A stretch of 59,277 nucleotides of DNA from Mollicutes bacterium (lineage in GTDB: Bacteria; Bacillota_I; Bacilli_A; RF39; UBA660): NCBI GenBank assembly GCA_012521575.1, contig JAAYMD010000022.1:1-59277 (forward strand). Direction: 5' to 3'. This document shows positions 6,006 to 59,277 of this stretch, piece by piece. Position numbers and translations under genes: made by a program. How positions within the stretch are numbered: position 1 is the stretch's first letter; each line of letters opens with the position of its first letter. Under the pieces are notes generated by a model, which ran no database searches, was not told the DNA's origin, and was given only the letters and a program-made list of their open reading frames with translations.

Positions 6006-6203
6006 AAAAAAATATGTTTTTTGAATGTGTATATGTACTTTTTTAAAATTTGGTTGACTTTCTAGGATAATCATATTACTTCAAATTTAATTTGAGGTAA
6101 AAATATTTAACAAAGGATTTACTTTAATAGTAGTCTAGCTATTATATTATGATTTCCTAAACAGCCAACCTATAATTATTTTACCACAAATTTTTACAAT
6201 TTG

Positions 6204-6551
6204 TTATTTTTTTTCATCTTTATGAAGTTCATTAATGATTTTTTCAATTTTCATACCATACTCAATTGATTCATCATAAACAAAAGTCAATTCTGGTAAA
6301 TGTCTAATTTCTATATAATCAGCAAGTTTTGTTCTGATAAAACCACGAGCATTGTTTAAAGATTTTAAAATTTCTTCACGTTTATCATCTTCCAATACAG
6401 TAACATAAACTTTTGCATAACTTAGATCAGATGATAGTTTAACATCGGTTACTGTTACAAATTGAATGTTTTTATCTTTTATTTCTGTTGCTAATATATA
6501 ACTTATTTGCTTTAGTAAACTATTGGATAATCGATTAAGTTTCATATTCAT
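6204..6551 (-). CDS. rbfA: Ribosome-binding factor A
   Basis: 115 aa, lies immediately after infB, RbfA-like sequence (VTVTDVKLSSDLSYAKVYV). AGGTGG RBS. Confidence 0.9.
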   Translation of the reverse strand: MNMKLNRLSNSLLKQISYILATEIKDKNIQFVTVTDVKLSSDLSYAKVYVTVLEDDKREEILKSLNNARGFIRTKLADYIEIRHLPELTFVYDESIEYGMKIEKIINELHKDEKK

Positions 6552-6562
6552 ATTATCGCCAC

Positions 6563-8647
6563 CTATTTTTTAAATTTCACAATTTCAAAAGCTTCAATAA
6601 TATCTCCTACTTTAATATCATTGTAATTTTCAATAGTAATACCACATTCAAAACCTTTTTTCACTTCTTTTACTGGATCTTTTAATCGTTGAAGACTTCC
6701 TATTTTCCCAGTATAAATAACGATTCCATCACGAATAACACGAACTTGTGCATTAGATTTAATTACACCATCTACAACATATGAACCAGCAATTACTCCT
6801 ACTTTTGAGAATGTAAATAGTTGACGAACTTCTGCGCTTCCAAGCACTTGTTCTTCAGAATCTGGTTCAAGCAAACCTTTCATAGCAGCTTCAACATCTT
6901 CAACAACTTTATATATAACATCATACAATCTAATTTCGACTTCATTTTCTTTAGCAATATTTCTAATTTCACTGTTTGGTCGAACATTAAATCCAATTAA
7001 AATAGCATCGGCAGCTTTTGCTAATAAAATGTCACTTTCAGTAATTGTCCCAACACCTGTTCGAATAACTTTAACACGGACATCTTCAACTTCAATTTTT
7101 TCTAATGTTGTCTTTAATGCTTCAGCGCTTCCGTTGGTATCAGCTTTAACTATGATGTTGATGTTTTTTACTCCTTGTTGGATTTTAGAAAATAAATCAT
7201 CTAATTTCATGACTTCTTTTGTTATATTACTATTTTCTTCTGCTTTTCTTTTTCTTTCTTCGGCAATTTTTCGTGCTTCTTTTTCTGTTTCAAAAGCCAT
7301 GAATTTATCGCCTGCTTCTGGAACTTCATTTAAACCAGTAATAAAGACTGGTTTTGATGGTGATGCTTCCGCAAGATCATGTCCATTTTCATCTTTCATA
7401 GTTCTTATACGTCCATAACAAGTTCCGCAGACCACAGGATCACCAATTCTTAATGTTCCATTTTGTACAATTAAAGTTACTAAAGGTCCAACAAATTTAT
7501 CTAAACTAGCTTCGATAACGGTTCCACTAGCATAACGTTTTGGATTTGCTCTATAGTTTTGAAGTTCAGCAATTAATAAAATGTTTTCTAATAGATCTTC
7601 AATTCCTTCACCAGTTAATGCTGAAATTTTTGTATAAAGAGTATCTCCGCCCCAAATATCAGGCATTAATCCATGTTCTGATAATTCAGTCATTACTTTT
7701 TCTGGATTAGCATCTGGTTTATCAATTTTATTAATTGCAACGATAATAGGTACATTTGCTGCTTTAGCATGATCGATTGCTTCTACAGTTTGAGGCATAA
7801 CACCATCATCAGCCGCAACAATTATGATAACAATATCGGTAACACTAGCACCTCTAGCACGCATTCCTGTAAAAACTTCATGCCCTGGGGTATCAATAAA
7901 TGTAATTAACTGATCTTTATATTTAGTTTGATACGCTCCTATAGCTTGCGTTATTCCACCAGCTTCGCTTTCAGCGATGTTAGCTTTTCTAATAGTATCA
8001 AGTAAAGTGGTTTTTCCATGGTCAACATGTCCCATTATAGTTACTATTGGTGGTCGTGGAACAAGGTCTTTATCATCATCTACAATTTCAAATTCTTCAA
8101 AGTTCGAAATATCAACCGCTTCTTCTCTTTTTAATTCTTTATTGTAGTCAATAGCAACAATTTCAGCACTTTCATAACTTATATTATTATTAATTGTTGC
8201 TACTATTCCTAAAGAAAATAATTTTTTAATGACTTCTGTAGGATTTATATCAAGTGCTTCAGCAAACTCCTTTACAGTCATATTTTCTCTGTAAATAACT
8301 ATATTATCATTATTTTTCGTAACATTCGAGGTTAATTTTTCTTTCTTTTTATACATTTTTTTCTTTTGTTTAGCAAATTCAGCCTTTGAATGATTGGTGT
8401 TTGTTTTTTTCTTATTTCCCTTTAAAAACTCTTTGGAATCATCCATTTTTATTTTTGTAGAGTTTACTAATTCTTCTAAATCTTCATCTTCAACTTCTAA
8501 ATTAATAAAATTATCAAGTTCTACAATATCATCTTCTGATAGCATATCTTCTTTACTAAAAGCATTAATACCTATTTCCCTACAATAATTCAAAATTTCC
8601 TCTACAGTCTTTTGCATTTCTAATGCATATTCTTCAACACTCATCAT
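6563..8647 (-). CDS. infB: Translation initiation factor IF-2
   Basis: GTPase motifs [17 protein letters not shown] and NKID. Start set at ATG 8647 (MMSVEE) because the GTG used by the ORF track lies inside the AGAGGTGA RBS. Confidence 0.95.
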
Positions 8648-8950: not shown

Positions 8951-10084
8951 TTACTCAGGTATTTCTATTCCTTCTTCTTTAGCTTGTTCATAAGTTTTGA
9001 TGTCAATGCGATAATGAGTTAATTTTGCCGCTAAACGAGCATTTGCTCCTTTTTTACCAATAGCAAGTGGTAAATTTTTATTATCTACGATAACAATCGC
9101 TTCTTTTTTGGTTGGATCAGGAATAATTACTTTTAAATTTTTAGCTGGACTTAAAGCGTTTTCGATGAATTTGGCTGGATCTTTATCATACAAAATAACA
9201 TCTATTTTTTCACCATTTAATTCTTCACTAATACGATTGATTCGCGTACTTCTTTCTCCTATGCAAGATCCAACCGCGTCAATATTTGGATTTTCTGTAA
9301 AAACCGCAACTTTACTACGGTTTCCTGCTTCGCGTGCTACAGAATGAATTAGGATAATTCCTTCCTGAATTTCAGATATTTCTAATTCAAATAAACGTTT
9401 TACAAATCCATAATGATTACGGGATAAAAAGATATTCGTTCCCTTTGTTGTAGTTTCTACCTTAGTTACATAAACTTTAAGATTTGAGCCCATCTTTATT
9501 TCTTCGCCAGGGATAATTTCTGTTTTTGGTAAAATTCCCTGAACACGACCAAAATCGATAAAGTAATTACTAGTATCTTCCATAGCAACTATACCAACAA
9601 GCATCTCATCTTGTTTATCTCCATATTCTTCACTAATAACAGCTCTTTCTGCTTCTCTAATTTTTTGAATAACAACTTGTTTAGCGGTTGATGCTGCAAC
9701 ACGACCAAAATCTTTTGGTGTTACTTCTTCTTCAATAGTTTCACCTAGTTGAATATTAGGATCTATTTTTCGTGCTTGCTCTAACGTTAAGTGAATTCTT
9801 TCGTCAAAAGGAAATTTAACTTTTTCTTTAATTTCTTCTCCATCAAATGTTTCATCAACAACAATTTCAATTTCACTTTCTGGATCAACAACAGTTTTAA
9901 ATGAGAAAACTTTTATTTCACCAGTTTGACGATTAATATCAACTCTAACATTTGATAAAGATTTATAATTTTTCTTATAAGCAGAAGTTAAAGCAAGTTC
10001 AAGCGCATCATAAATAACATCTTCAGGAATTCCCTTTTCTTTGACTAATAAATCAACAGCATTTTTTAAAGATTTGATATCCAT
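8951..10084 (-). CDS. nusA: Transcription termination/antitermination factor NusA
   Basis: N-terminal domain, S1 and KH domains recognisable (GIVAMEDTSNYFIDFG, AVGSCIGERSTRI, LAIGKKGANARLAAKLT). The ATG at 10084 follows a GAGGAAGGGAG RBS. Confidence 0.95.
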   Translation of the reverse strand: MDIKSLKNAVDLLVKEKGIPEDVIYDALELALTSAYKKNYKSLSNVRVDINRQTGEIKVFSFKTVVDPESEIEIVVDETFDGEEIKEKVKFPFDERIHLTLEQARKIDPNIQLGETIEEEVTPKDFGRVAASTAKQVVIQKIREAERAVISEEYGDKQDEMLVGIVAMEDTSNYFIDFGRVQGILPKTEIIPGEEIKMGSNLKVYVTKVETTTKGTNIFLSRNHYGFVKRLFELEISEIQEGIILIHSVAREAGNRSKVAVFTENPNIDAVGSCIGERSTRINRISEELNGEKIDVILYDKDPAKFIENALSPAKNLKVIIPDPTKKEAIVIVDNKNLPLAIGKKGANARLAAKLTHYRIDIKTYEQAKEEGIEIPE

Positions 10085-12571: not shown

Positions 12572-15190
12572 TTAAACACCTTTATTTTTATTATGTTTTT
12601 TTAGCCAAATCTTTCTAATCCAATCAACGGGAACAACAGTGAAAGCAAGTAGTAAAACAAAAATGAATTCAGGTAAAGTTAGTCCTACTACTCTAAAGAT
12701 CGTTCCACCATAATAGACTATATAAATTTGGATTATTGTTATTAGACACATAATTATAATAAAACCTCGATTTTTTAAAATGTGAGCCATAATATTTAAA
12801 CGATGAGTTCGAGCATTAAATGAATTAAAAATTCCAATAAAAATAAATAAAACAAAAAAGGCGGACATTAACATTAATTCATTATTATCTTCAACAAAAA
12901 TTGATTTAATGATAGGCAGTTTTAAAAATAAAAGACATAAAATAAATGAATATATACCTGTAAAAAGAATTTGTCCTAGCATATAGCTATTGATAATATT
13001 TTCATCACGTTTTTTTGGTTTTTCTTTCATGTATTCAAGAAGTGCTGGTTCTCCAGCAAATGCTAAAGCTGCTAAAGTGTCCATTATCATATTTACCCAT
13101 AACATTTGAATAACTGTTATCGGATTTTCAATTCCAATAAAGGGGCCAACAATTGAAATTCCAACAGCACATATATTAATTGTTAATTGTAAAATAATGA
13201 ATTTTCTAATACTTTTAAAAATAGTTCGTCCGTACAAAATGGCTTTGGCAATTGATTTAAAATTATCATCTAATATTACAATATCCGACGCTTCTTTTGC
13301 CACTTCAGTTCCACTTCCCATAGCTATGCCTACATCTGCTTTTTTGATCGCAGGAGCATCATTAACTCCGTCTCCTGTCATACCAACTACTAAGTCTAAG
13401 TCTTGTGCAATACGAACAAGTCTACTTTTATCACTTGGCAGTGCTCTGGCAATTACAGCAATTTTTGGTAGTTTTTCTTTTAATTCATTATCAGACATCT
13501 TTTTTAATTCTTCACTTGTTATTACTATTGAATCTTGCTTTAACAAACCGACCTCTTTTGCAACAGCAATAGCAGTATCTTTCGCATCCCCAGTTACCAT
13601 TACAACTTTAATTCCAGCATTCATTACCTGATTTACAGATTCTTTTACTTCTTTTCTTACCTCATCTCTAATTCCAATCAATCCCACTAATGTAAGACCT
13701 CGCATTTCATTTTTTGTATTAGGTTCATTATTAATAGTAGCAACCGCGATAAAACGAATTCCTTGTGATGCTTGTTCTTTCATTTTTTCTATAATTTTGG
13801 ATTTGTTAATCAAAGTCTTTTTACTACCATTTCGATCATAATAAAAATGGCTTTTTTTTAGTATTATTTCTGGCATTCCTTTAACTAAAGTTGTGTTAAG
13901 TGTCCCGGAAACACTAACCATTGAATATTTTAATTTACTATCAAAAGGTATTTGTTTTTCTTTTTTTAATGATATATCGATATGGTAGGGATAGGCATAT
14001 TCAAGTAAAGCACGATCAGTTGCATTACTTCCAAATGCTAGTTTTTTTTCATTATCGTAAGTAGAAGCATTATTATATATTAACGAGATATTTAACAATT
14101 CAATTAATTTGTTTTTTTGTTTTGGAAATTCTTTACCATTTTCATTATTATTACCATCTATAAAATTTACTACTTCTAATTTTCCTTTTGTTAATGTACC
14201 AGTTTTATCTGTAAACAATATATTTAAACTTCCAAAAGTTTCAATACCTAATAATTTTCTCACTAAAATATTATCTTTTAACATTTTTTTCATATTTTTT
14301 GATAAAACAAGAGTTATCATCATTGGTAGCCCCTCAGGAACAGCTACAACAATTACTGTTACAGCCAAAGTTACTGCATGAAGAATATAACCAAACATTA
14401 AATGAAAATTAGTAATTGTATCTTTTATTTTAGTTAAATCAAAAAAATTTTTGATAACCACTACATCGATTAAAAATGAAATTGCTACTAAAAAAGCCCC
14501 AATATAACCTAACTTGCTAATGGTATGTGCAAGCTTTCGAAGGCGATACTTTAGCGGTCCTTCTCTTTTTTCTTCCTGTAATTCAAGCCCTATACTACCA
14601 TATATTGTTTTATCACCTATATTTTGCACAAGCATTATTGCCTCATTAGCACACACTACACTTCCTCTGTAAACTTTATTATTATTTATATCTTTTGTAA
14701 TTTCTTTAGATTCCCCACTTAAAGCTGATTCATCTACTTCAATAGAACCTTTTATAATAATCCCATCAGCGGGAATTTTATCCCCAGCTTGTAATAAAAT
14801 TACATCATTTTTAACTACTTCACTAATAGGTATTAGTGTTAAAATCCCATTACGGTAAACACGACAATTTATTTTCGAAGCTTCTTCTTGAAGTCTTTTA
14901 AAAGATTCTTCACTACCATATTCTGATAATGTAGAAATTAAAGATGCAACAAATATGGCAATGGCAATTCCAACTGTTTCATACCAATCAAAATTTTTTA
15001 ATAAAAACAATGTTTTTATTGCAAGTGCGATTAATAATATTTTTGTCATTGGTTCGCCTAGACTTTCAATAAACAATTTAATAAATGAATTTTGTTTTTT
15101 GTTACTTATGTCGTTGCTACCATATTTCAATCGTGATTTAACAACTTCCTCATCCATAAGTCCAAGTTTTTTTGTGTCCAAACTCATCAC
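12572..15190 (-). CDS. P-type cation-transporting ATPase, P2 (Ca2+-ATPase-like, YloB/PMCA type)
   Basis: TGES-like SGES, PEGLP, DKTGTLT and TGDGVNDAPAIKKADVGIAMG motifs. About 10 TM segments, 872 aa. The exact start is ambiguous (GTG/ATG/TTG all lie next to the AGGTGA RBS). Confidence 0.85.
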   Translation of the reverse strand: MMSLDTKKLGLMDEEVVKSRLKYGSNDISNKKQNSFIKLFIESLGEPMTKILLIALAIKTLFLLKNFDWYETVGIAIAIFVASLISTLSEYGSEESFKRLQEEASKINCRVYRNGILTLIPISEVVKNDVILLQAGDKIPADGIIIKGSIEVDESALSGESKEITKDINNNKVYRGSVVCANEAIMLVQNIGDKTIYGSIGLELQEEKREGPLKYRLRKLAHTISKLGYIGAFLVAISFLIDVVVIKNFFDLTKIKDTITNFHLMFGYILHAVTLAVTVIVVAVPEGLPMMITLVLSKNMKKMLKDNILVRKLLGIETFGSLNILFTDKTGTLTKGKLEVVNFIDGNNNENGKEFPKQKNKLIELLNISLIYNNASTYDNEKKLAFGSNATDRALLEYAYPYHIDISLKKEKQIPFDSKLKYSMVSVSGTLNTTLVKGMPEIILKKSHFYYDRNGSKKTLINKSKIIEKMKEQASQGIRFIAVATINNEPNTKNEMRGLTLVGLIGIRDEVRKEVKESVNQVMNAGIKVVMVTGDAKDTAIAVAKEVGLLKQDSIVITSEELKKMSDNELKEKLPKIAVIARALPSDKSRLVRIAQDLDLVVGMTGDGVNDAPAIKKADVGIAMGSGTEVAKEASDIVILDDNFKSIAKAILYGRTIFKSIRKFIILQLTINICAVGISIVGPFIGIENPITVIQMLWVNMIMDTLAALAFAGEPALLEYMKEKPKKRDENIINSYMLGQILFTGIYSFILCLLFLKLPIIKSIFVEDNNELMLMSAFFVLFIFIGIFNSFNARTHRLNIMAHILKNRGFIIIMCLITIIQIYIVYYGGTIFRVVGLTLPEFIFVLLLAFTVVPVDWIRKIWLKKHNKNKGV

Positions 15191-17787: not shown

Positions 17788-18171
17788 TTATCCTCGTGGT
17801 CGTTTTGGTGGACGACATCCATTGTGTGGTATTGGTGTTACATCTGTTATTGAAGCAATTTCTAAGCCTGCTGTTTGTAATGAACGAATCGCTGTTTCAC
17901 GCCCTGGTCCTAGACCTTTGACGAATACTTCAACTTTTTTCATCCCAGCTTCAACTGCTGCGCGACCTGCAGCTTCTGCTGACATACCAGCTGCATATGG
18001 TGTTGATTTTTTTGTTCCTTTAAAACCTAACGTTCCAGCAGATGCCCAACTAATTGCATTTCCTTCTTTATCACTAATTGTTACAATAGTATTGTTAAAG
18101 GTTGAATGTATATAAGCATTTCCTTCAGGTACATTCTTTTTTACCCTTCTTTTTCTTGCTTTATAAGCCAT
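17788..18171 (-). CDS. rpsK: 30S ribosomal protein S11
   Basis: [21 protein letters not shown] motif and conserved gene order. Confidence 0.95.
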
Positions 18172-24116: not shown

Positions 24117-24656
24117 TTAATTCCTAAACGGCAGTCCTAGTCTTTTTAATAATTCATATGCTTCTTCGTTTGTTTTGGCTGTAGTAACAAATACAATATC
24201 CATTCCACGAACTTTGACAATATTGTCATATTCAATTTCTGAAAATATTAATTGTTCTGTTATACCTAAGGTATAATTTCCGCGGCCATCAAAAGATTTC
24301 GGTGAAACACCTTTAAAATCCCTTACACGTGGTAGGGCTATACTGATAAGTTTATCTAAAAAATTATACATTTTTTCGCCTCGTAATGTTACTTTACATC
24401 CTACTGGATGACCTTCTCTTATTTTAAATCCCGCAATTGCCTTTTTAGCACGTGTTATAACAGGTTTTTGACCTGTAATTAATTCAAGATCTCTAACTGC
24501 TCCTTCTATTATTTTAGCATTGTGTGCACCGTCACCAGCACCAATATTTATAACAATTTTTTCTAATTTAGGCACTTGCATAACTGATTTATAATTAAAT
24601 TTTTCCATTAAACTAGGTATAACCTCTTTTTTATATTTTTCTTTTAGGCGGCTCAC
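24117..24656 (-). CDS. rplE: 50S ribosomal protein L5
   Basis: [13 protein letters not shown]-terminus and the RGNYTLG block. Confidence 0.95.
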
Positions 24657-35740: not shown

Positions 35741-36628
35741 CTACTCCTTTATATTGAAAATTTCTAAAATTCTATTTAAATCTGCAACATTATTAAATTT
35801 TATGATAATTTTATTGTCTTTTATTTTTACTTTTGTGTCAAGCTTTTCACACAATAATTCTTCAACATATTTGTAATCTTCGTTTTTCTCAGATATATTT
35901 GTTTTACGTTTAATTTTTACTCTTTTTTCAAATTCTTTAGAATCTGTTTTTTCTTCTAATTCGCGAACTGGTATATTTTCCTCAACTATTTTTTGCGCTG
36001 TTTCAATGATTTGTTTTTCATCTTCTAATTTACTTAAAACTCGAGCATGTCCCATCGATATTTCTTTTTTTGTAATCATATCTTGAACTTCTTTAGGTAG
36101 TCTCAAAAGTCCTAGCATATTAGTAATATGACTTCTACTTTTTCCTACTTTTTTTGCTAATTGTTCATGAGTTAAATTTAATTTATCTATCATTGATTGG
36201 TATGCTATAGCTTCTTCAATGGCATTTAAATTTTCTCTTTGTAAATTTTCAAGAAGGGCGATTTCCATCATTTGTTCGTCAGTAAAATCTCGAATAATTG
36301 CAGGAATTGTTTCTAACCCCAATTTTTTGCTAGCACGAAATCTTCTTTCACCAGCAATAATTTCATATCCTTTAATACTCTTTTTAACGATGATTGGTTG
36401 AATTACTCCGTGCTCTTTAATTGAAGATGCAAGCTCATCAATAGAACCTTCGTCAAAAGTTTTTCTTGGTTGATACGGATTTGGACGAAGTTCACTTAAT
36501 TTTAAATTTACTATTTCCTCACTATTACTTGTTTCATATATTCTTTTTTCTATGCTGGCCAAATCTAAATTTTCGCTATTGAAAAGTTGTTCTAAACCCA
36601 TTCCTAATGCTCTTTTTTTATTTTCCAT
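35741..36628 (-). CDS. parB: Chromosome partitioning protein ParB/Spo0J (parS-specific type)
   Basis: PNPYQPR and IIAGERRFRA boxes. The HTH KSRSHITNMLGLL...SMGHARVL carries the Spo0J-type Arg/Gly-His signature. Downstream of soj. Confidence 0.9.
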   Translation of the reverse strand: MENKKRALGMGLEQLFNSENLDLASIEKRIYETSNSEEIVNLKLSELRPNPYQPRKTFDEGSIDELASSIKEHGVIQPIIVKKSIKGYEIIAGERRFRASKKLGLETIPAIIRDFTDEQMMEIALLENLQRENLNAIEEAIAYQSMIDKLNLTHEQLAKKVGKSRSHITNMLGLLRLPKEVQDMITKKEISMGHARVLSKLEDEKQIIETAQKIVEENIPVRELEEKTDSKEFEKRVKIKRKTNISEKNEDYKYVEELLCEKLDTKVKIKDNKIIIKFNNVADLNRILEIFNIKE

Positions 36629-37403
36629 TTCGTTCGATCACTTCCTTAGCTAAATTTAAATATGCTTCTGTTCCTCTACTATGAGGATCATATGCTAAAA
36701 TTGGTTTTCCGTGACTTGGTGCTTCAGATAAACGAACTAATCTTGGAATTATTGTATCATATACACGTTCTTTAAAATAACTTTTAATTTCTTCAACAAC
36801 TTCGAGTCCAAGTTTTGTTCTACTATCCAACATTGTTAATAAAACACCTTCAATATCTAAATTAGGATTTAGATTTTTTTGAGCTAACATTATAGTATTT
36901 AGTAATTGCATTATACCTTCTAAGGCAAAGAATTCACATTGAACAGGTATAATTACCGAATCACTTGCTGTTAGAGCATTAGTTGTCAAAATTCCTAATG
37001 ATGGCGGACAATCTATAATAATGTAATCAAATTTTTCTTTTATCTGGTCCAAATGTTTCTTTAATTGTCCAACTTTTGAAAACCCTGGTTCCAATCGACT
37101 CCTATCCATCAATTCAATATCAATTCCTGCTAAATTAATGGTTGCTGGAATAGCATATAAATTTTTAAATTTAGTTTTTATTATTACTTCACCTATAGTT
37201 GCTTTATCTATTAATAAATCATAAATACTTTTATTTATATCTGCTTTAGTAAGACCAATTCCTGTTGTCGTATTTCCTTGTGGGTCTAAATCAACCAATA
37301 AAACTTTTTTTCTTAAAATTCCAAGTGATGCAGCTAGATTGATACTTGACGTTGTTTTTCCAACTCCGCCTTTTTGATTAACAAGTGAAATTATCTTTCC
37401 CAT
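36618..37403 (-). CDS. parA: Chromosome partitioning ATPase ParA/Soj
   Basis: Deviant Walker A NQKGGVGKTT and the DCPPSLG motif. Confidence 0.9.
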   Translation of the reverse strand: MGKIISLVNQKGGVGKTTSSINLAASLGILRKKVLLVDLDPQGNTTTGIGLTKADINKSIYDLLIDKATIGEVIIKTKFKNLYAIPATINLAGIDIELMDRSRLEPGFSKVGQLKKHLDQIKEKFDYIIIDCPPSLGILTTNALTASDSVIIPVQCEFFALEGIMQLLNTIMLAQKNLNPNLDIEGVLLTMLDSRTKLGLEVVEEIKSYFKERVYDTIIPRLVRLSEAPSHGKPILAYDPHSRGTEAYLNLAKEVIERNGK

Positions 37404-38403: not shown

Positions 38404-39208
38404 CTTCCATATTCTCCTTATCATTATAAAGATTTGATAACTTAGACCCCCTGTTTTTTATTATAAATAATATTATTCCAGATATAATCATTGAAATTGA
38501 TAAAAGTTGAGCGGCTTTGTAATCACCAAACATTAAACTATCTGTTCTTAAACTTTCGATAAAATATCGTCCTATTCCATACCAAATTAAATAAAATGAT
38601 GTTATTTGACCAATTTTGATATATTTATATCTTCTAATAAATAATATAGCAATAAATCCTATAAAACACCACAGTGATTCATATAAAAAGGTAGGATGAT
38701 AGTAAGTGCCATTTATATACATGCCATCAATTACAAATTGTGGTATAAATATACTTTTTAGAAAAGTCACTGTTGTTTCTGCACCATATGCTTCTTGATT
38801 AAAAAAGTTTCCCCATCGACCTATTGCTTGCCCTATTAACATTCCAACTACTATTATATCTAATAGTCTAAATATATTAACCTTATGTTTTTTACTATAA
38901 AAAATTATAAATAACAATCCCATAATAATAGCGCCATGAATAGCTAAACCGCCTTCCCAAATTTTAAAAATTTCTATCGGATTAGCCCTATAATAATCAA
39001 AATTAAAAAACACATAATACAATCTTGCACCTATTATTGATAATGGAATTAAATAAAAGAATAAGTTTATCATAAAATCTTCCGAGATTTTCCATTTTTT
39101 TGCTTCATGTAGAGCAAAAGTTCCTCCAATAAGCAATCCTGATAAAATCATGATTGAGTACCAATAAATTTTAATTATTCCTAAATCTAAAAAAATAGCC
39201 TGCATCAA
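38390..39208 (-). CDS. lgt: Prolipoprotein diacylglyceryl transferase
   Basis: GGLAIHGA and GRWGNFFNQEAYG signature motifs. Confidence 0.95.
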   Translation of the reverse strand: MMQAIFLDLGIIKIYWYSIMILSGLLIGGTFALHEAKKWKISEDFMINLFFYLIPLSIIGARLYYVFFNFDYYRANPIEIFKIWEGGLAIHGAIIMGLLFIIFYSKKHKVNIFRLLDIIVVGMLIGQAIGRWGNFFNQEAYGAETTVTFLKSIFIPQFVIDGMYINGTYYHPTFLYESLWCFIGFIAILFIRRYKYIKIGQITSFYLIWYGIGRYFIESLRTDSLMFGDYKAAQLLSISMIISGIILFIIKNRGSKLSNLYNDKENMEDVKF

Positions 39209-39627
39209 TCATTCCTCCTTAATATTGGTTCAATAACTAATGCACTCATTAGTAAATTCATTACCGATATACATATTGCTACAAAAAAACCCATAAATAT
39301 ACCATTTATATCAAAATGATTACCAAGAATAAAGTCAACCATTTTTAATATAAATACATTGATAAAAGGATAAAAAAGGCCTAGTGTCAAACCAGTTATT
39401 GGTAGTGTTAACCAAATCAAAACCGGTTTAATTGATTTATTTAAAAAATAAATAATTATAGATGCCATTAATCCCCAAAAACCAAAATAACTATTATCAA
39501 TATATATAGTTTTTTTGAAAATTAATGATACTGCAATTAACACTATTGCGTACCCAACCATATGAATTAACCAGTCTAAAAATTTGTTAAGTCTTTTAGT
39601 TTGATTTTTAATTATTACAATTTTCAT
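39205..39627 (-). CDS. YvlD-like membrane protein (phage holin 4_2 superfamily fold)
   Basis: Four-TM small protein. Adjacency to lgt resembles the B. subtilis yvlD region. Start at 39627 follows a GGGAGA RBS. Confidence 0.5.
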   Translation of the reverse strand: MKIVIIKNQTKRLNKFLDWLIHMVGYAIVLIAVSLIFKKTIYIDNSYFGFWGLMASIIIYFLNKSIKPVLIWLTLPITGLTLGLFYPFINVFILKMVDFILGNHFDINGIFMGFFVAICISVMNLLMSALVIEPILRRND

Positions 39628-39742
39628 ATTTTCATCTCCCAACAAGCTTAAATTTTAGCTTCTTGACTTCTTATATTATATAATATTAATTTCTTTATTA
39701 CAATAATTTGCAACTATAAACTTATTTTGTGTAAGAAAAACA

Positions 39743-41812: not shown

Positions 41813-41842
41813 ATTTTAAAAAAAACTGCCTTTTAAAGCAGT
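41813..41842 (-). terminator. Rho-independent terminator after the noc-like gene
   Basis: On the minus strand, a CTGCTTTAAAAGGCAG hairpin followed by T8. Overlaps the stop codon. Confidence 0.55.
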
Positions 41843-43290
41843 TATTTATTTTTAGTTATTGTAAGAATTACTTGATAGCTATCACCTAAATCTAATTCAT
41901 CAATTTCTAAAAAGTATCCATCTTCTTCTATTCTTTTTGTAAATTCTCTAATTTCTTTAATTATTTCGTTGAATGATTTTTCATTTTTTACATCCTCGTT
42001 ATTATTACTTAAATCAGATATTGTATGGTTAAATGTATATTCATTATTATTGTTTTCAATTATATTGGTTGGTTGTTCTATATCTTCAAAATCATTAAAA
42101 TTAAAATTATAATCAGGTTCATATTTAAAATTATTATCCTCATTATTATTATTTGCTTCAGAGTCAGGTTTATCAATTATTGTTTCATCATAGTTTATTT
42201 CTGGTAAAGTTAATTCTTCATCTAGAAGTAATTGTGAATTTGATAAATCAAATTCAAATCCTTCATTTTGTTCTTTATTTTGTTGACTTAACTTATCTTC
42301 GTTTTCATTTTCTTCTATAAAACTGAAAAATTTACCATGTTTTATTTTTACATCATTTTTATCTTCTTCAACTGGTTTGCTATCTACCATATTTTCATCA
42401 GCTTTAAGTAAACTATCAATATCCGCTAAAGGTTTTTCGACATTTATTTCTTCAGCAGTTTGCTCAATTTTATCAATATCTAAAAATCCAGGTTTTACAT
42501 TATTATCATTAAAAATATTAGTACTACTTGTAGTAACTGGTTCAACAACCTGATTACCATCTAATTCATCAAATATTTCAATATTTTCTATTATCGGAGA
42601 TGAAGGAATATTAAATTTATCTTTTTGTTGCTCATCCATAATATTTTCCTCTTTTCGATCAGTTTTTTTTGGGTTTTTAACACGTAGTAATTTATCAATT
42701 TCGTTATCTGTTTTTCTTACAGTTAATCTTTCGTTTATTATTCTTTTTAACATTTCTTTTTGATCATTTTTATCTTCTAATTTTAACAATGAACGGGCAT
42801 GTCTTTCTGATATTTCATTATTTAATAATGCCTCTTGTACTTCTTCATCTAAATTCAATAGTCTTAATTTGTTAGAAATTGTAGATTGACTAACATCTAA
42901 CCTGGCAGCTAGTGCATCTTGATTCAAATATCCCATTTCTAGTATTTTTTTATACGAAATAGCTTCTTCTATTGGTGATAAATCTTTTCTTTGAATATTT
43001 TCAATTAGCGCGACTTCAGCACTTTGCTTATCATCCATATTACTTATTATCGCAGGGATAGTTTGCTTTCCAGCAATTAAACTTGCCTTATATCTTCTTT
43101 CACCAGCAATAATTTCATATTTATCTCCAATTTCTCTAACAATAATTGGCTGTATCACACCATGCTCTTTAATTGAATCAGCTAATTCATTAAGTGCATT
43201 TTCATCAAATTTTATTCTTGGCTGAAAACGATTGGGTAATATATCATCAAGATTTAATTCAACAACTTTTTTATCACTTTCATCGTTCAT
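41842..43290 (-). CDS. noc: Noc-type ParB family protein with a long low-complexity insertion
   Basis: ParB N-domain (LPNRFQPR, IIAGERRYKAS). The HTH SQSTISNKLRLL...SERHARSL matches the B. subtilis Noc signature (GQSTIANKLRLL...TERHARAL). The C-terminus (FNEIIKEIREFTKRIEEDGYFLEIDELDLGDSYQVILTITK) resembles the Noc C-terminus. Lies next to rsmG, as in Bacillus. Confidence 0.8.
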   Translation of the reverse strand: MNDESDKKVVELNLDDILPNRFQPRIKFDENALNELADSIKEHGVIQPIIVREIGDKYEIIAGERRYKASLIAGKQTIPAIISNMDDKQSAEVALIENIQRKDLSPIEEAISYKKILEMGYLNQDALAARLDVSQSTISNKLRLLNLDEEVQEALLNNEISERHARSLLKLEDKNDQKEMLKRIINERLTVRKTDNEIDKLLRVKNPKKTDRKEENIMDEQQKDKFNIPSSPIIENIEIFDELDGNQVVEPVTTSSTNIFNDNNVKPGFLDIDKIEQTAEEINVEKPLADIDSLLKADENMVDSKPVEEDKNDVKIKHGKFFSFIEENENEDKLSQQNKEQNEGFEFDLSNSQLLLDEELTLPEINYDETIIDKPDSEANNNNEDNNFKYEPDYNFNFNDFEDIEQPTNIIENNNNEYTFNHTISDLSNNNEDVKNEKSFNEIIKEIREFTKRIEEDGYFLEIDELDLGDSYQVILTITKNK

Positions 43291-43358: not shown

Positions 43359-43386
43359 TTTTTTTGGGAAATATTTCCCAAAAAAA
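43359..43386. repeat. 28-bp perfect palindrome TTTTTTTGGGAAATATTTCCCAAAAAAA in the rsmG-noc spacer
   Basis: Read directly from the sequence. The core is made of two NBS half-sites in everted order (GGGAAAT|ATTTCCC). Confidence 0.9.
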
Positions 43387-43403: not shown

Positions 43404-44108
43404 TTATAGGGGCTCTTTTTTTATTTTGGCATAATCTCGTGGATAAATATTCGGAATTTTTCCTTTTTTTTGCACTACAATTAATGCTCGTTGGCTATTT
43501 TCAATTGGTAATTTAAATTCAATAACTTCTTTAATTTTAGTGTTTAATTTTTTTATAGCTTTTTTTGATAAAAATATTTCCCGGGAAATATTTGCTTTCA
43601 TTGCAATAAAAAATTTTTCTTTTTTCACAATTGGTATACAATATTCTAGCAAAATATTAAGAGGGGCGACCGCCCTTGCTGTGACAACATCAAATCTATC
43701 TTTGTTTTTTCGACCAAATTCTTCGGCACGAGCATGAATTGTATAAATTTTCTTTAGTTTCAATTTATTTATAACTTCATTTAAAAAGATAATTCTTTTT
43801 TGTAACGAATCAACCAGTGTGACTTCTAGATTGGGAAATAAAATTTTTATTACAACTCCAGGAAATCCTGCTCCTGAACCTACATCACAAAAGTTCTGTT
43901 GTTTTTCTAAATCAATAGCACGCACCAAGGTTGCTGAATCATAAAAATGTTTTAAATATACATCTTCTTTTTTATTTATTGTAGTTAAATTCATTTTGTT
44001 ATTCCATTCTATTAGTAATTTATAATACATTTGAAATTGCTTAATTTGCTCATCTGTTAGTTTAATACCTATTTTTTTTATATTATCAATAAATTCTTTT
44101 TCATTCAT
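43404..44108 (-). CDS. rsmG: 16S rRNA (guanine527-N7)-methyltransferase RsmG (GidB)
   Basis: SAM motif DVGSGAGFPG and position after mnmG. Confidence 0.9.
   Translation of the reverse strand: MNEKEFIDNIKKIGIKLTDEQIKQFQMYYKLLIEWNNKMNLTTINKKEDVYLKHFYDSATLVRAIDLEKQQNFCDVGSGAGFPGVVIKILFPNLEVTLVDSLQKRIIFLNEVINKLKLKKIYTIHARAEEFGRKNKDRFDVVTARAVAPLNILLEYCIPIVKKEKFFIAMKANISREIFLSKKAIKKLNTKIKEVIEFKLPIENSQRALIVVQKKGKIPNIYPRDYAKIKKEPL
43576..43589. other. Noc-binding site (NBS) consensus inside the rsmG coding sequence
   Basis: ATTTCCCGGGAAAT is an exact match. The palindrome extends to 22 bp, AAATATTTCCCGGGAAATATTT (43572-43593). Confidence 0.75.
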
Positions 44109-49586: not shown

Positions 49587-49820
49587 AAATATGTGAATAA
49601 CTTTATTCTTTTTTTTGTTTATTTTATTATTCTATTATATTTTTTCCACACTTATGTGGAAAAAATATTTATTTTAATCTGTTAATTACATATTTTTATT
49701 CACAAAATTGTGGAAAAGTTTATTTTATAATATTTTTTATTGTGGAAAACTATATTTCGCTTGGTTTTTTATGATTTTTATTGTAAAATAATCTTAGTTG
49801 ATTAGTTTGGTGGTGGAAAA
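49587..49820. other. oriC part 1: DnaA-box cluster upstream of dnaA
   Basis: Six 9-mers within one mismatch of TTATCCACA. They are TGTGAATAA 49592-49600, TTTTCCACA 49642-49650, TGTGGAAAA 49655-49663, TTATTCACA 49696-49704, TGTGGAAAA 49709-49717 and TGTGGAAAA 49741-49749. Confidence 0.85.
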
Positions 49821-51173: not shown

Positions 51174-51324
51174 GTGTGAATAAATAAAAAAAACAAAAAA
51201 GTTATACACATAAAAATAATATTAATTATCCTTTAAATATAAACTATAAATAAAGTTTTCCACATTTTCCACACCTATAATAATAATAAATTTTAAAAAA
51301 GAATAAAAAAAGGAGAGATAATTT
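51174..51324. other. oriC part 2: DnaA boxes plus AT-rich unwinding region between dnaA and dnaN
   Basis: Boxes TGTGAATAA 51175-51183 and TTATACACA 51202-51210, and tandem TTTTCCACA at 51256-51264 and 51265-51273. These are followed by CC, then TA(TAA)4 and an A/T-only stretch. Confidence 0.8.
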
Positions 51325-52645: not shown

Positions 52646-53095
52646 ATGTATGAGATCAATTTAGCAACTATCGCAATATTAGCAATTGATGAAAATAGAA
52701 GTAAAGTAATTGAGGATGATGAAACTTTTATAGTTGAACGTCCAACTCCAAAAGTAATTGATGATAGTTGCAGATATTTTGGAAGCTCTTATATTGGAAG
52801 ATTTGAAGGAAGTAAAAATTTTTTAGGTAGAACTATTTATAAATCTCCTATTATTATTGAAGAAACTAATGAGATTATCTTTTTTCCAACTGGTTCAGCA
52901 CGATCATCAGATTGTTCATGGATTTGTTTAAAGAAAATAGAACGTTTTGAGAAAAAAGATAATCAAACATTAGTATATTTCAAAAATGGGAGTTCAATAA
53001 CTGTTCCTATTAGATATGCTTCTTTTCAAAATCAGGTATTAAGAGCTTCACGTCTAGAATCTGTTTTAAGACAGAGAAAAGCAAAAAAAGCGTAA
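52646..53095 (+). CDS. comK: ComK family protein (149 aa, shorter than B. subtilis ComK at the C-terminus)
   Basis: Hand alignment to B. subtilis ComK gives these pairs: YEINLATIAIL/YEVNGATIAVL, CRYFGSSYIGR/CRFFGSSYAGR, SPIIIEETNEIIFFPT/PPIMVDPSNQIFLFPT, and PIRYASFQNQVLRASRL/PISYNSFENQVYRTAWL. Confidence 0.85.
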   Translation: MYEINLATIAILAIDENRSKVIEDDETFIVERPTPKVIDDSCRYFGSSYIGRFEGSKNFLGRTIYKSPIIIEETNEIIFFPTGSARSSDCSWICLKKIERFEKKDNQTLVYFKNGSSITVPIRYASFQNQVLRASRLESVLRQRKAKKA

Positions 53096-56251: not shown

Positions 56252-56266
56252 AAGGAGATGTATAGT

Positions 56267-58708
56267 ATGGATAAAAAGATACAAGTTGTAAATATATCCG
56301 ATGAAATGGAAAGCTCTTTTCTTGATTATTCAATGAGTGTCATAGTATCAAGAGCACTTCCAGATGTCCGAGATGGTCTAAAACCAGTTCATAGACGTAT
56401 ATTATACACAATGTATGAGGAAGGATTCTTACCGGATAAGAAGTATGTTAAAAGTGCAAATACAGTTGGTAATGTTCTTGCCCATTATCACCCACACGGA
56501 GATGCTGCTGTGTATGATACTATGGTAAGAATGGCACAACCATTTAATTATAGATATCCCTTAGTTGATGGTCATGGAAATTTTGGTTCTATAGATGGTT
56601 ATGCTGCGGCTGCACAACGTTATACAGAAGCAAGACTAGCAAAAATTTCAATGGAGTTGTTACGTGATATAAATAAGGACACTGTTGATTTTATGAAAAA
56701 CTATGATGGTGAGCGAATAGAACCAGTAGTTTTACCAAGTCGATTTCCTAATATTTTAGTAAACGGAACAATGGGAATTGCGGTAGGGATGGCTACTAAT
56801 ATTCCTCCCCACAATCTAGGTGAAGTAATAGATGGATGTATAGCTTATATAGATAATAATGATATTACAACGTCGGAATTAATGGAATTTATTAAAGGTC
56901 CTGATTTTCCAACTGGTGCTAGTATTTTAGGAAATAGTGGAATAAAAAAAGCATATGAAACAGGAAAAGGTAATATTACAATCCGCTCAAAATGTGAAAT
57001 TGTTGAACATAAAAATGGAAAACAAAGTATTGTTATCACAGAAATTCCATATCAAGTTAATAAATCAACATTAATTTCTAAAATTGCAGATTTAGTAAAA
57101 GATAAGGTTATAGATGGTATAACGGATTTACGTGATGAGACTGACTTAAATGGAATAAGAATTGTGATCGAACTTAGAAGAGATGTGATTGCAAATGTTA
57201 TTTTAAATAATTTATATAAATATACAAATTTACAAACTTCTTATAGTATTCATCTTTTAGCGCTAGTTGATGGTGAACCTAAACTTTTAGGATTAAAAGA
57301 TATAATTGAAAAATATGTAGAACACCAAAAAGTAGTAATTTATAGAAGAACAAAATTTGATTTAGAAAAAGCTGAAAATCGCGCTCATATTTTAGAAGGT
57401 CTTGTAATTGCGCTCGAAAATATTGATGATATAATAGAAATAATTAAAAAAGCTGCTGATGATAAAAGCGCTATTGAACAATTGATTAGTAAATATAATT
57501 TAACAATTGAACAAGCAGAAGCAATACTTGAAATGAAGTTAAGAAGATTAACAGGCCTTGAAAGAAGTAAAATAGAGGAAGAATTAAAAGAATTAACTTT
57601 ATTAATTGCAGATTTAAAAGAAATATTATCAAGTAATGAAAAAATTTCCAATATTATAAAGGAAGAATTATTAGAAATAAAAAGTAAATATAAAGACGAG
57701 AGAAGAACAAAAATTGATATTACAGCTATTGAACATATTGAAGATGAATCATTAATTCCGGTAGAAGATATAGTAGTAACTTTAACGAATAATGGTTATA
57801 TAAAAAGAATAACAAGTGAAACATATCGCACACAAAACCGTGGTGGTGTTGGAATTAAAGGAATGTCGATAAATGAAGAAGATATTGTAGATCAATTATT
57901 AATAGCAAAAACTCATGATTATATTATGTTTTTTACTAATAAAGGAAAAGTTTATCGAACAAAAGGTTACACAATACCTGAATATAGCAGACAATCTAAA
58001 GGATTACCAATTGTAAATCTATTACCATTAGAAAAAGATGAAAAAGTAAAAGTTTTATTAAAAATAAACGAAGAAGACAAAAATAATTATTTTGTATTTT
58101 GTACACAAAAAGGGTTGGTAAAACGAACAAAAATATCAGAATTTGAAAATATTAGAGTAACTGGAAAAATTGCCATAACATTAAAAGAAGATGATGAATT
58201 AATTTCTGTAAGAAAAACAAATGGTAATAATGATATTATGATAGCAACAGAAAATGGAAATATGATTAGATTTAATGAAAAAGAAGTAAGAGTAATGGGA
58301 AGAAATGCTAGTGGTGTTAAAGGAATTAATATAAACAACGACAAATGTGTAGGATGCGAAATCGCCACTAATAATCAATTAGTGTTAATTGTTACTGAAA
58401 AAGGTTATGGTAAAAAAACTGATATAAATGAATATAGAACAACACATCGTGGCACGAAAGGTGTTAAAGCACTAAATATTACTGAAAAAAATGGTAACAT
58501 TGTAGCATTCAAATTGGTGAATGGGGATGAAGATTTAATGATAATTACCGATTCAGGAACAATTATTAAATTATCTTTAAAACAAATTTCGACTACAGGT
58601 CGTATTGCTCAAGGAGTAAAACTAATAAATTTAAAAGATGACCAAAAAGTAAGTTCCATTGCTATAGACAATAATATAGATGACAATTTAGAAAACGATG
58701 ATAAATAA
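56267..58708 (+). CDS. gyrA: DNA gyrase subunit A
   Basis: [12 protein letters not shown], the QRDR-region [18 protein letters not shown] and the active-site [11 protein letters not shown]. The ATG at 56267 lies 9 nt after an AAGGAG RBS. Confidence 0.97.
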
Positions 58709-58724
58709 TTTATCATCGTTTTAA
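58692..58724 (+). terminator. Rho-independent terminator after gyrA
   Basis: AAAACGATGATAAA (58692-58705) pairs with TTTATCATCGTTTT (58709-58722). Spans the stop codon. Confidence 0.7.
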
Positions 58725-58740
58725 TGTTTCACGTGAAACA
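58725..58740. other. parS site 1 (TGTTTCACGTGAAACA)
   Basis: Exact match to the symmetric form of the Spo0J/ParB parS consensus TGTTNCACGTGAAACA. Confidence 0.85.
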
Positions 58741-58914
58741 ATACTTTTACATTTTATAATATATTTTTATTCAAAATATTTTTGTAAACAAAAAAAAGAG
58801 CACATTATTAAATATCATCGACGATTTGTTGAAATTAAAAAATTTTTTAATGATTAATAAATTTAAATTTTATATGAAGTATTAAATTGATCTAGTGTAA
58901 ATAATATATGAAAT

Positions 58915-58930
58915 TATTTCCCGGGAAATA
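58915..58930. other. Noc-binding site (NBS), perfect 16-bp palindrome TATTTCCCGGGAAATA
   Basis: Exact match to the B. subtilis NBS consensus core ATTTCCCGGGAAAT with symmetric flanks. Lies 1 bp from parS site 2. Confidence 0.8.
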
Positions 58931-58931
58931 A

Positions 58932-58947
58932 TGTTTCACGTGAAACA
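58932..58947. other. parS site 2 (TGTTTCACGTGAAACA)
   Basis: Exact 16-mer. With flanks it is the 18-bp palindrome ATGTTTCACGTGAAACAT. Confidence 0.85.
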
Positions 58948-59063
58948 TCATTTTATTATTATATTGATATGTTAAAAAAATAATAATTAATATATTAAAT
59001 AATTTGATACAGTTTTTTTTATTTTTTAGTAGTAAAACATATAAAATATTTTTCACTAACCAA

Positions 59064-59079
59064 TGTTTCACGTGAAACA
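59064..59079. other. parS site 3 (TGTTTCACGTGAAACA)
   Basis: Exact 16-mer, 18-bp palindrome with flanks. Confidence 0.85.
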
Positions 59080-59111
59080 TTAAATTGATCTAGTATAATA
59101 ATGTATAAAAA

Positions 59112-59127
59112 TTTTTTTCGAGAAATA
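59112..59127. other. Degenerate NBS-like element (TTTTTTTCGAGAAATA, 4 of 16 positions differ)
   Basis: Occupies the position homologous to the perfect NBS in repeat copy A. Probably not a functional Noc site. Confidence 0.4.
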
Positions 59128-59128
59128 A

Positions 59129-59144
59129 TGTTTCACGTGAAACA
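59129..59144. other. parS site 4 (TGTTTCACGTGAAACA)
   Basis: Exact 16-mer, 18-bp palindrome with flanks. Confidence 0.85.
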
Positions 59145-59174
59145 TTATAATAAATGTGAAAAAGTAAGTAATTC

Positions 59175-59203
59175 TTGCTTTTTTTTAAAAAATGTTATAT
59201 TAT
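59175..59203 (+). promoter_or_regulatory. Candidate sigma-A promoter of the SRP RNA gene
   Basis: TTGCTT (59175-59180), 17 nt, TATTAT (59198-59203). The predicted start near 59210 coincides with the first base of the terminal helix. Confidence 0.4.
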
Positions 59204-59209
59204 TAATTT

Positions 59210-59277
59210 GACACAACATATATAATCGAACCAGGTCAGGATCGGAAGATAGCAGCCTTAAGATTCCCTATATGTGT
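59210..59277 (+). ncRNA. ffs: Signal recognition particle RNA (4.5S/scRNA), running to or past the window edge
   Basis: CCAGGTCAGGATCGGAAGATAGCAGCC matches the universal domain IV motif CCAGGUCAGGUCCGGAAGGAAGCAGCC, including a GGAA tetraloop. The 5' ACACA..ATATA..AATC pairs with the 3' GATT..TATAT..GTGT. The 3' end is not visible. Confidence 0.75.

Follow-up and report, generated by a model that had tools for sequence, protein, structure and literature searches.

A cluster of four parS sites after gyrA as a candidate compact centromere in an uncultured Mollicutes bacterium

Where on its chromosome a bacterium loads ParB, and how tightly the loading sites can be packed there, is the question raised by a short intergenic spacer in contig JAAYMD010000022.1 of a Mollicutes bacterium (GenBank assembly GCA_012521575.1; GTDB lineage Bacteria, Bacillota_I, Bacilli_A, RF39, UBA660). 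The whole stretch of DNA analyzed, hereafter the window, is 59,277 nucleotides (nt) long with a G+C content of 0.278, and the spacer of ~490 bp (58709-59199) lies between gyrA and ffs, the gene for the signal recognition particle (SRP) RNA. An earlier note, made from the letters of the window, had proposed that this spacer is a discrete, high-density ParB loading locus. The proposal is supported by the consensus match of the sites, the presence of a cognate ParB and Soj, the proximity of the origin, and the conserved location in relatives. The spacer is thus predicted, with a probability of about 0.85, to be a compact chromosomal centromere, that is, a four-parS loading array for a Spo0J-type ParB.

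An exact search of the whole window for the 16-mer TGTTTCACGTGAAACA returned four copies and no further one, at the following positions (the sites are palindromic and have no strand; L056 is a contig of the same strain from an independent metagenome assembly).

58725 to 58740: parS#1, exact match to TGTTTCACGTGAAACA, also present in L056.
58932 to 58947: parS#2, exact match, also present in L056.
59064 to 59079: parS#3, exact match, also present in L056.
59129 to 59144: parS#4, exact match, within inverted repeat I21.

These are the four positions that the earlier note had read; the 16-mer did not occur in 100 dinucleotide-preserving shuffles, and its chance expectation, calculated from the G+C content, is ~1.6e-5 copies per 59 kb. 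All four sites have the exact, fully symmetric form of the parS consensus TGTTNCACGTGAAACA, and the 16-mer is identical to the parS duplex that was crystallized with ParB (PMC7383237). The extension of three copies to the 18-bp palindrome ATGTTTCACGTGAAACAT was also reproduced and applies to parS#2, #3, and #4, with parS#1 excluded by its next base, an A; at parS#4 the perfect palindrome reaches 24 bp (59125-59148, inverted repeat I21). Apart from a duplication that involves parS#2 and #4, the four sites share only background identity (0.25 to 0.50) over their 40-nt flanks, which indicates that conservation is confined to the 16-mer and does not extend to a longer repeat. The spacings between the sites are 207, 132, and 65 bp, with no obvious helical phasing. 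Beyond the four exact copies, no site with two or fewer mismatches was found across the 59 kb, and none lies inside the parB gene (35741-36628). The density is therefore 4 sites in 420 bp versus 0 in the remaining 58.8 kb. Matches with three mismatches number four (9326, 20711, 25045, and 40946), which is at chance level (expected, 1.55 ± 1.5), and half-sites occur near 17893 in rpsK and near 24302 in rplE; the statement of the earlier note that only these half-sites exist elsewhere, with none in spo0J, was borne out.

The genes and origin elements expected to work with such sites are found in the same window.

35741 to 36628, minus strand: ParB/Spo0J, with ParB_N (PF02195) and HTH_ParB (PF17762) domains, the presumed reader of parS.
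36618 to 37403, minus strand: Soj/ParA ATPase, with the deviant Walker A motif KGGVGKT, overlapping the start of parB.
49592 to 49749, no strand: DnaA-box cluster upstream of dnaA, six boxes with at most one mismatch.
51175 to 51273, no strand: DnaA-box cluster between dnaA and dnaN, four boxes.

The ParB protein carries the GERRFRA and ENLQRE boxes and the N-terminal sequence KRALGMGL, and its best solved relative is Bacillus subtilis Spo0J (6SDK; E = 7e-63). Specificity within the ParB/Noc family is set by positions 173, 179, 184, and 201, which read RTAG in ParB and QKKR in Noc (PMC7383237). The window ParB reads R-M-R-G at these positions, with the equivalents of R173 and G201, and by these residues it is assigned to the parS-specific 'RXXG' class of that study. 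The soj-spo0J pair (35741-37403) is located 22 kb left of the array. The GC-skew minimum is at dnaA, flanked by the two DnaA-box clusters, and the array is 7.5 kb from the replication origin, oriC. Both distances agree with those given in the earlier note.

The comparison of the gyrA-downstream spacer in related genomes, which the earlier note had suggested, carries much of the argument. A GyrA-anchored scan of species-representative genomes identified eight relevant relatives, all of them metagenome-assembled genomes (MAGs) of uncultured 'Bacilli', 'Tenericutes', or 'Erysipelotrichaceae', and 12 to 22 kb was inspected around the locus in each. The same scan of metagenomes added only L061, which is the L002 contig at greater length; its other matches were at most 51% identical, except for L079, an N-terminal fragment of 146 residues (59%). 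Seven of the eight relatives, with GyrA 55 to 82% identical, carry one to eight parS sites in syntenic gyrA-ffs-tadA spacers, as listed here by GyrA identity and by order after gyrA (NBS, Noc-binding site).

L001, GyrA 81-82%: two copies of TGTTCCACGTGAAACA, 37 bp apart head to tail (8480-8532), then ffs, then tadA.
L002 (the same contig as L061), GyrA 81-82%: four copies of TGTTCCACGTGAAACA in 35-bp tandem units (8497-8620), then ffs, then tadA.
L010, GyrA 81-82%: four copies of TGTTCCACGTGAAACA in 37-bp tandem units (6171-6308), then ffs, then tadA.
L003, GyrA 68%: an NBS, ffs, then eight parS over 930 bp, then tadA.
L007, GyrA 67%: an NBS and an NBS-like site, ffs, then four strict and two degenerate parS over 750 bp, then tadA.
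L004 and L005, GyrA 55-56%: one perfect TGTTCCACGTGGAACA past the gyrA stop codon and before serS (L004, 8485-8500; L005, 8486-8501).
L006 (Erysipelotrichaceae), GyrA 59%: no parS within 14 kb.

Within the inspected loci, no parS-like site with two or fewer mismatches was found outside the spacer arrays; parS recurs in this spacer alone, and only the 16-mer is conserved. Its variation among relatives is limited to the free positions 5 (T/C) and 12 (A/G), giving TGTT[T/C]CACGTG[A/G]AACA, and what differs is the flanks (which are unalignable), the spacing, the copy number, and the side of ffs. The retention of the 16-mer while flanks, spacing, and copy number diverge points to selection on ParB binding sites and suggests that the parS 16-mer is under purifying selection at a regional centromere. 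The arrays themselves have been built in several ways. In L001, L002, and L010 the sites are head-to-tail repeats (2, 4, and 4 copies) with C/A-rich spacers, the 35-bp unit being repeated 3.5 times in L002 and the 37-bp unit 3.7 times in L010, and in L003 a ~294-bp unit with two parS is tandemly duplicated (9009-9596), which gives four of the eight sites. Since a single site is also found in L004 and L005, the most distant in GyrA (55-56%), the arrangement of a parS directly after gyrA appears to predate the expansion into arrays. In L004, where the gap was read, TGTTCCACGTGGAACA fills the short gyrA-serS interval.

If the spacer is a centromere, it would be expected to work as follows, by analogy with B. 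subtilis and Caulobacter ParB. ParB dimers would recognize each 16-bp palindrome through their helix-turn-helix domain, and contact with parS would cause the protein to bind cytidine triphosphate (CTP) and to close its N-terminal gate, for which the GERRxRA box is present. The closed clamp would then slide off parS to flanking DNA and leave the site free for the next dimer. With four sites in 420 bp, loading at this point would be raised severalfold and so give a single dense partition complex. In Corynebacterium glutamicum, one parS supports ParB binding to ~16 kb on each side (PMC7083940); by analogy, oriC, at a distance of 7.5 kb, should be covered by the complex. The complex would stimulate Soj/ParA and presumably load SMC, leading to origin segregation.

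Several points weigh against this prediction. The host is uncultured, and ParB binding at the spacer is predicted from sequence. No smc gene was found in the window. The view covers 59 kb of the genome, so the chromosome may hold further parS loci. Only the window assembly supports parS#4, as L056 diverges past parS#3. No parS occurs near gyrA in the 14 kb examined of the Erysipelotrichaceae relative L006. In addition, the array precedes ffs in the window, L001, L002, and L010 and follows it in L003 and L007; by this comparison its position appears to be conserved only regionally.

The alternative that survives best accepts the sites as real parS working by the same mechanism and holds that the spacer is one of several such loci over the origin-proximal chromosome, as in B. 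subtilis, and not the sole or dominant centromere. That the examined sequence spans 59 kb leaves room for such loci, and both B. subtilis and Pseudomonas aeruginosa have extra dispersed sites (PMC4368675, PMC7333895). However, no site with two or fewer mismatches lies in the 50 kb left of the array, parB included, every relative with sites has them in the array alone over its 12 to 22 kb around gyrA, and the contrast between four sites in 420 bp and none in 58.8 kb is steep. This alternative is therefore considered possible and rather doubtful.

A further alternative is that the palindromes are operators, bound by ParB as a repressor or by an unrelated regulator, that control ffs and/or tadA and do not form a centromere. 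The following features of the spacer and its borders bear on it.

56258 to 58708, plus strand: gyrA (NCBIfam NF004043, 1204 bits), the upstream neighbor of the array.
58692 to 58722, plus strand: terminator-like hairpin of gyrA (inverted repeat I17; RNA fold of -18.9 kcal/mol, z = -5.8).
59175 to 59203, plus strand: putative ffs promoter-like sequence, TTGCTT ... TGTTATATTAT, read by eye.
59200 to 59277, plus strand: ffs, small bacterial SRP RNA (Rfam RF00169, 49.9 bits), with its 3' part beyond the window end.

The ffs promoter-like sequence, which is kept in L001 and L002, begins by eye 30 bp past parS#4; the last parS of L003 and L007 lies ~16 to 17 bp ahead of the tadA start codon; and a promoter scan places weak -35 elements inside parS#1 and parS#3. 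All three observations would suit an operator. However, the number of promoter-like sites in the spacer is no higher than in shuffles (10 versus 7.1 ± 2.3), the placement relative to ffs and tadA is not conserved, with the array switching sides of ffs between lineages, and the copy number runs from 1 to 8. Moreover, the 16-mer is the pan-bacterial parS with its cognate ParB present, and the site of L004 precedes another gene, serS. Operator function is thus regarded as very unlikely. The gyrA hairpin is AT-rich, with a 14-bp stem across the stop codon followed by UUUU, and ends 2 nt short of parS#1; the promoter and terminator scan found no GC-rich terminator in the spacer, and an Rfam search at a permissive threshold left the spacer empty except for ffs. 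Spacer open reading frames of 21 to 62 amino acids (aa) were rejected as genes: several start with MFHVKH on either strand, which is ATGTTTCACGTGAAACAT read as codons.

The internal anatomy of the spacer bears on how the array arose and on whether it was assembled correctly. A unit of ~82 bp, in the order parS, TTAAATTGATCTAGTRTAA..., NBS, parS, is present twice, with a column identity of 88% (repeat families D1 and D3).

58866 to 58947, plus strand: unit A, consisting of a decayed parS, TTAAATTGATCTAGTGTAA..., a perfect NBS, and parS#2; 88% identical to unit B.
59064 to 59144, plus strand: unit B, consisting of parS#3, TTAAATTGATCTAGTATAA..., a decayed NBS, and parS#4, from the unit A/B alignment.
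58866 to 58881, no strand: candidate decayed fifth parS, AATTTTATATGAAGTA, matching at 9 of 16 positions in the unit A/B alignment and suggestive at most in this AT-rich background.
59113 to 59128, no strand: decayed NBS, TTTTTTTCGAGAAATA, matching at 12 of 16 positions, ~87 bp ahead of ffs.

Unit A has a perfect NBS and an apparently decayed first parS; unit B has two perfect parS and a decayed NBS. This pattern suggests turnover of the array through local duplication, with different sites decaying in the two copies. Since an NBS or NBS-like site stands at similar distances ahead of ffs in the window (decayed, ~87 bp), L003 (intact, 82 bp), and L007 (NBS-like, 73 bp), an NBS upstream of ffs is probably ancestral. 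Tandem Repeats Finder detected no array-level period in the window spacer, and head-to-tail repeats with one ParB-family site per unit, of the kind seen in sopC of the F plasmid, do not occur in the window.

The possibility that copy number and arrangement come from a misassembled palindromic repeat was weighed against other contigs of the same strain, which occurs in biogas-fermenter metagenomes. The window ends 133 bp past parS#4, contigs L057 and L058 end inside parS#1, and L056 diverges after parS#3, where it has a 38-bp extended palindrome (14749-14936) and ends in another 'AACCAATGTTTCAC'. These contig ends and the divergence could reflect assembly breaks caused by the repeats, polymorphism among strains, or both. 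On the other hand, a 481-bp stretch of L056 that includes parS#1 to #3 and the NBS matches the window at 99.6% identity; 12% of the alignment columns differ between units A and B, which argues against a collapsed or duplicated read path; the order of array, ffs promoter, and ffs is collinear with L001 and L002; and multicopy arrays are present in five other genomes. An assembly artifact is accordingly given little credence, less than the operators. As improbable is a generic interspersed palindromic repeat, of the repetitive extragenic palindromic (REP) or miniature inverted-repeat transposable element (MITE) type, or a plasmid or phage partition remnant resembling parS: metagenome contigs do end at the array, as is usual where assemblers meet repeats, whereas no further copies exist in the 59 kb, the flanks differ between copies, many dispersed copies with shared flanks are seen neither in the window nor in the relatives' loci, the relatives keep the 16-mer alone and at the same locus alone, and plasmid and phage similarity searches gave only short AT-rich chance matches. 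From the conservation pattern in the relatives, the array is taken to be neither a generic repeat nor a mobile element nor a fixed promoter operator.

The spacer also contains a site of the consensus bound by Noc, TATTTCCCGGGAAATA (PMC7383237), which had not been described in the earlier note.

58915 to 58930, no strand: perfect NBS, exact match to TATTTCCCGGGAAATA, also present in L056.
43575 to 43590, no strand: second perfect NBS, exact match to TATTTCCCGGGAAATA, within rsmG and a short way upstream of the Noc-like gene.
41842 to 43290, minus strand: Noc-like ParB paralogue of 482 aa, directly after rsmG (the canonical noc position), the presumed NBS reader.

The chance expectation of the NBS in the window is ~1.6e-5. 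The spacer NBS is separated from parS#2 by 1 bp, with the centers of the two sites 17 bp apart, and shares its core with the duplex of the Noc-NBS crystal structure (PMC7383237). An NBS abutting a parS was not met in the ParB and Noc literature consulted, in which no dedicated search for it was made. Exact NBSs are also found in the loci of L003, L007, and L010, and an NBS inside dnaX (exact or with one mismatch) is present in all five closer relatives (L001, 10098; L002, 10172; L010, 7898; L003, 11298 and 11373; L007, 11355). L003 and L007 have a further NBS at the recF-gyrB junction (~4.0 kb), which gives four NBSs per 14 kb near the origin. A Noc-like CTP clamp would probably load at the spacer NBS beside ParB.

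The best solved relative of the paralogue is Geobacillus Noc (E = 3e-61). Its specificity positions read Q-K-N-R, of which three of the four are Noc-type, including both specificity-switching ones, with N in place of K at 184. Its family consists of proteins of 411 to 660 aa encoded in MAGs of Bacilli and Mollicutes; all 87 aligned members have Q173 and R201, 71 have K and 16 have T at position 179, and 79 have N at position 184. The protein scores 275.8 bits with the curated Noc model TIGR04285 of NCBIfam, below the cutoff of 315. It starts with MNDESDKKVVELNL and has no N-terminal amphipathic helix, and all 87 members have only 14 to 19 residues before PNRFQPR. In Noc the N-terminal amphipathic helix (aa 1 to 15, with F5, F8, and F9) is needed for nucleoid occlusion and is reportedly conserved in all homologues examined (PMC4331003), and membrane binding of B. 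subtilis Noc needs this helix (PMC4331003, PMC8429893). Since the N-terminal membrane helix is lacking, the paralogue is classified from its sequence as Noc-like and not as a canonical Noc. It contains instead an acidic linker of ~230 aa (range given, 200 to 400 aa), in which G-K-F-F is invariant and PGF[LM]DIDKIE conserved across the 87 members. The motif GKFF[NS][FML] is akin to R7-F8-F9, the residues that are essential in the Noc helix, and one might speculate that it is a relocated membrane motif. Between rsmG and the Noc-like gene there is also a perfect palindrome, T9-GGGAAATATTTCCC-A7 (43359-43386), that holds NBS-like half-sites in everted order. The reading of GGGAAATATTTCCC (43366-43379) as everted NBS half-sites was rejected, as it is the stem of a terminator-like T9-stem-A7 palindrome after rsmG, and the palindrome is probably not a Noc site.

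Comparison with known systems places the array among elements of an established kind. B. subtilis reportedly has 10 parS sites with the consensus TGTTNCACGTGAAACA, and 8 lie in the origin-proximal ~20% of the chromosome (PMC7614844). The window shares with the Spo0J-parS system of B. subtilis the 16-bp consensus, a Spo0J-type ParB with Soj, the position near the origin, and presumably CTP-clamp loading and SMC recruitment. It differs in that the sites lie within 420 bp of one spacer with none in parB, whereas those of B. subtilis stand singly over hundreds of kilobases. The contrast with scattered sites that the earlier note had drawn is thus real as far as B. subtilis goes, but clustered origin-proximal parS were already established in other phyla. 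C. glutamicum has 10 parS in 35 kb, 9 of them intergenic (PMC7083940), P. aeruginosa has 4 parS less than 16 kb from oriC (PMC4368675), and Streptomyces coelicolor and Listeria have 20 to 23 parS (PMC7333895). As in these clusters, the sites here are redundant, near-identical, mostly intergenic, and close to oriC, and would form one nucleation zone. Two differences stand out: the sites are packed one to two orders of magnitude more densely (4 sites per 0.42 kb in the window; 4 per 0.12 kb in L002), and copy number and arrangement shift between close species, with head-to-tail units in sister species. Since clustered origin-proximal parS are established in Corynebacterium, Pseudomonas, and Streptomyces, the array represents a known type of element in a denser form, distinguished by four sites in 0.42 kb, rapid turnover, and the embedded NBS.

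Two further systems offer partial likenesses. The sopC centromere of the F plasmid is built from 12 direct 43-bp repeats, and SopB binds a 16-bp inverted repeat in each of them (PMC3177203). The L002 (35-bp) and L010 (37-bp) arrays resemble sopC in being short head-to-tail units with one 16-bp site each; they differ from it in being chromosomal, with the chromosomal parS consensus and ParB, and the window array is not a regular tandem repeat. The Noc-NBS system of Bacillus and Staphylococcus is matched by a perfect NBS, a paralogue after rsmG, Geobacillus Noc as its nearest structure, and the equivalents of Q173, K179, and R201. The differences from that system are the absence of the N-terminal helix, the long acidic linker, the score below the Noc cutoff, N at position 184, and an NBS that abuts parS.

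A more far-reaching, tentative and on present evidence unlikely reading is that the centromere of this clade of uncultured low-GC Bacilli is a fast-evolving array of one to eight copies, sopC-like in the sister species, that is coupled to the loading site of a helix-less Noc-like clamp. The clamp would load side by side with ParB, competing or cooperating with it in the organization or tethering of the origin, unlike the terminus-excluded nucleoid occlusion of Noc, and GKFF would perhaps be its relocated membrane motif. A 2020 review of ParABS systems lists as open questions why the number of parS varies if one suffices and what drives clustering (PMC7333895). The clade offers a natural series for the birth and death of centromere sites, with 1, 2, 4, 4, 4, ~6, and 8 sites at one syntenic locus, duplication units, and decaying copies. 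The abutting NBS and parS, together with a helix-less Noc-like protein, form a compact natural substrate on which interference or cooperation between two paralogous CTP clamps could be studied. For annotation, the array marks the predicted centromere of an uncultured lineage and would account for the assembly breaks after gyrA. The findings leave the current ParABS model unchanged.

Two other genes of the window were recorded. Phage_holin_4_2-family membrane protein is encoded at 39205-39645 (minus strand), between uvrB and lgt. A comK homologue (52646-53095, plus strand; PF06338, E = 9e-41) lies between dnaN and recF of this small-genome, 28% G+C, uncultured member of the Bacilli.

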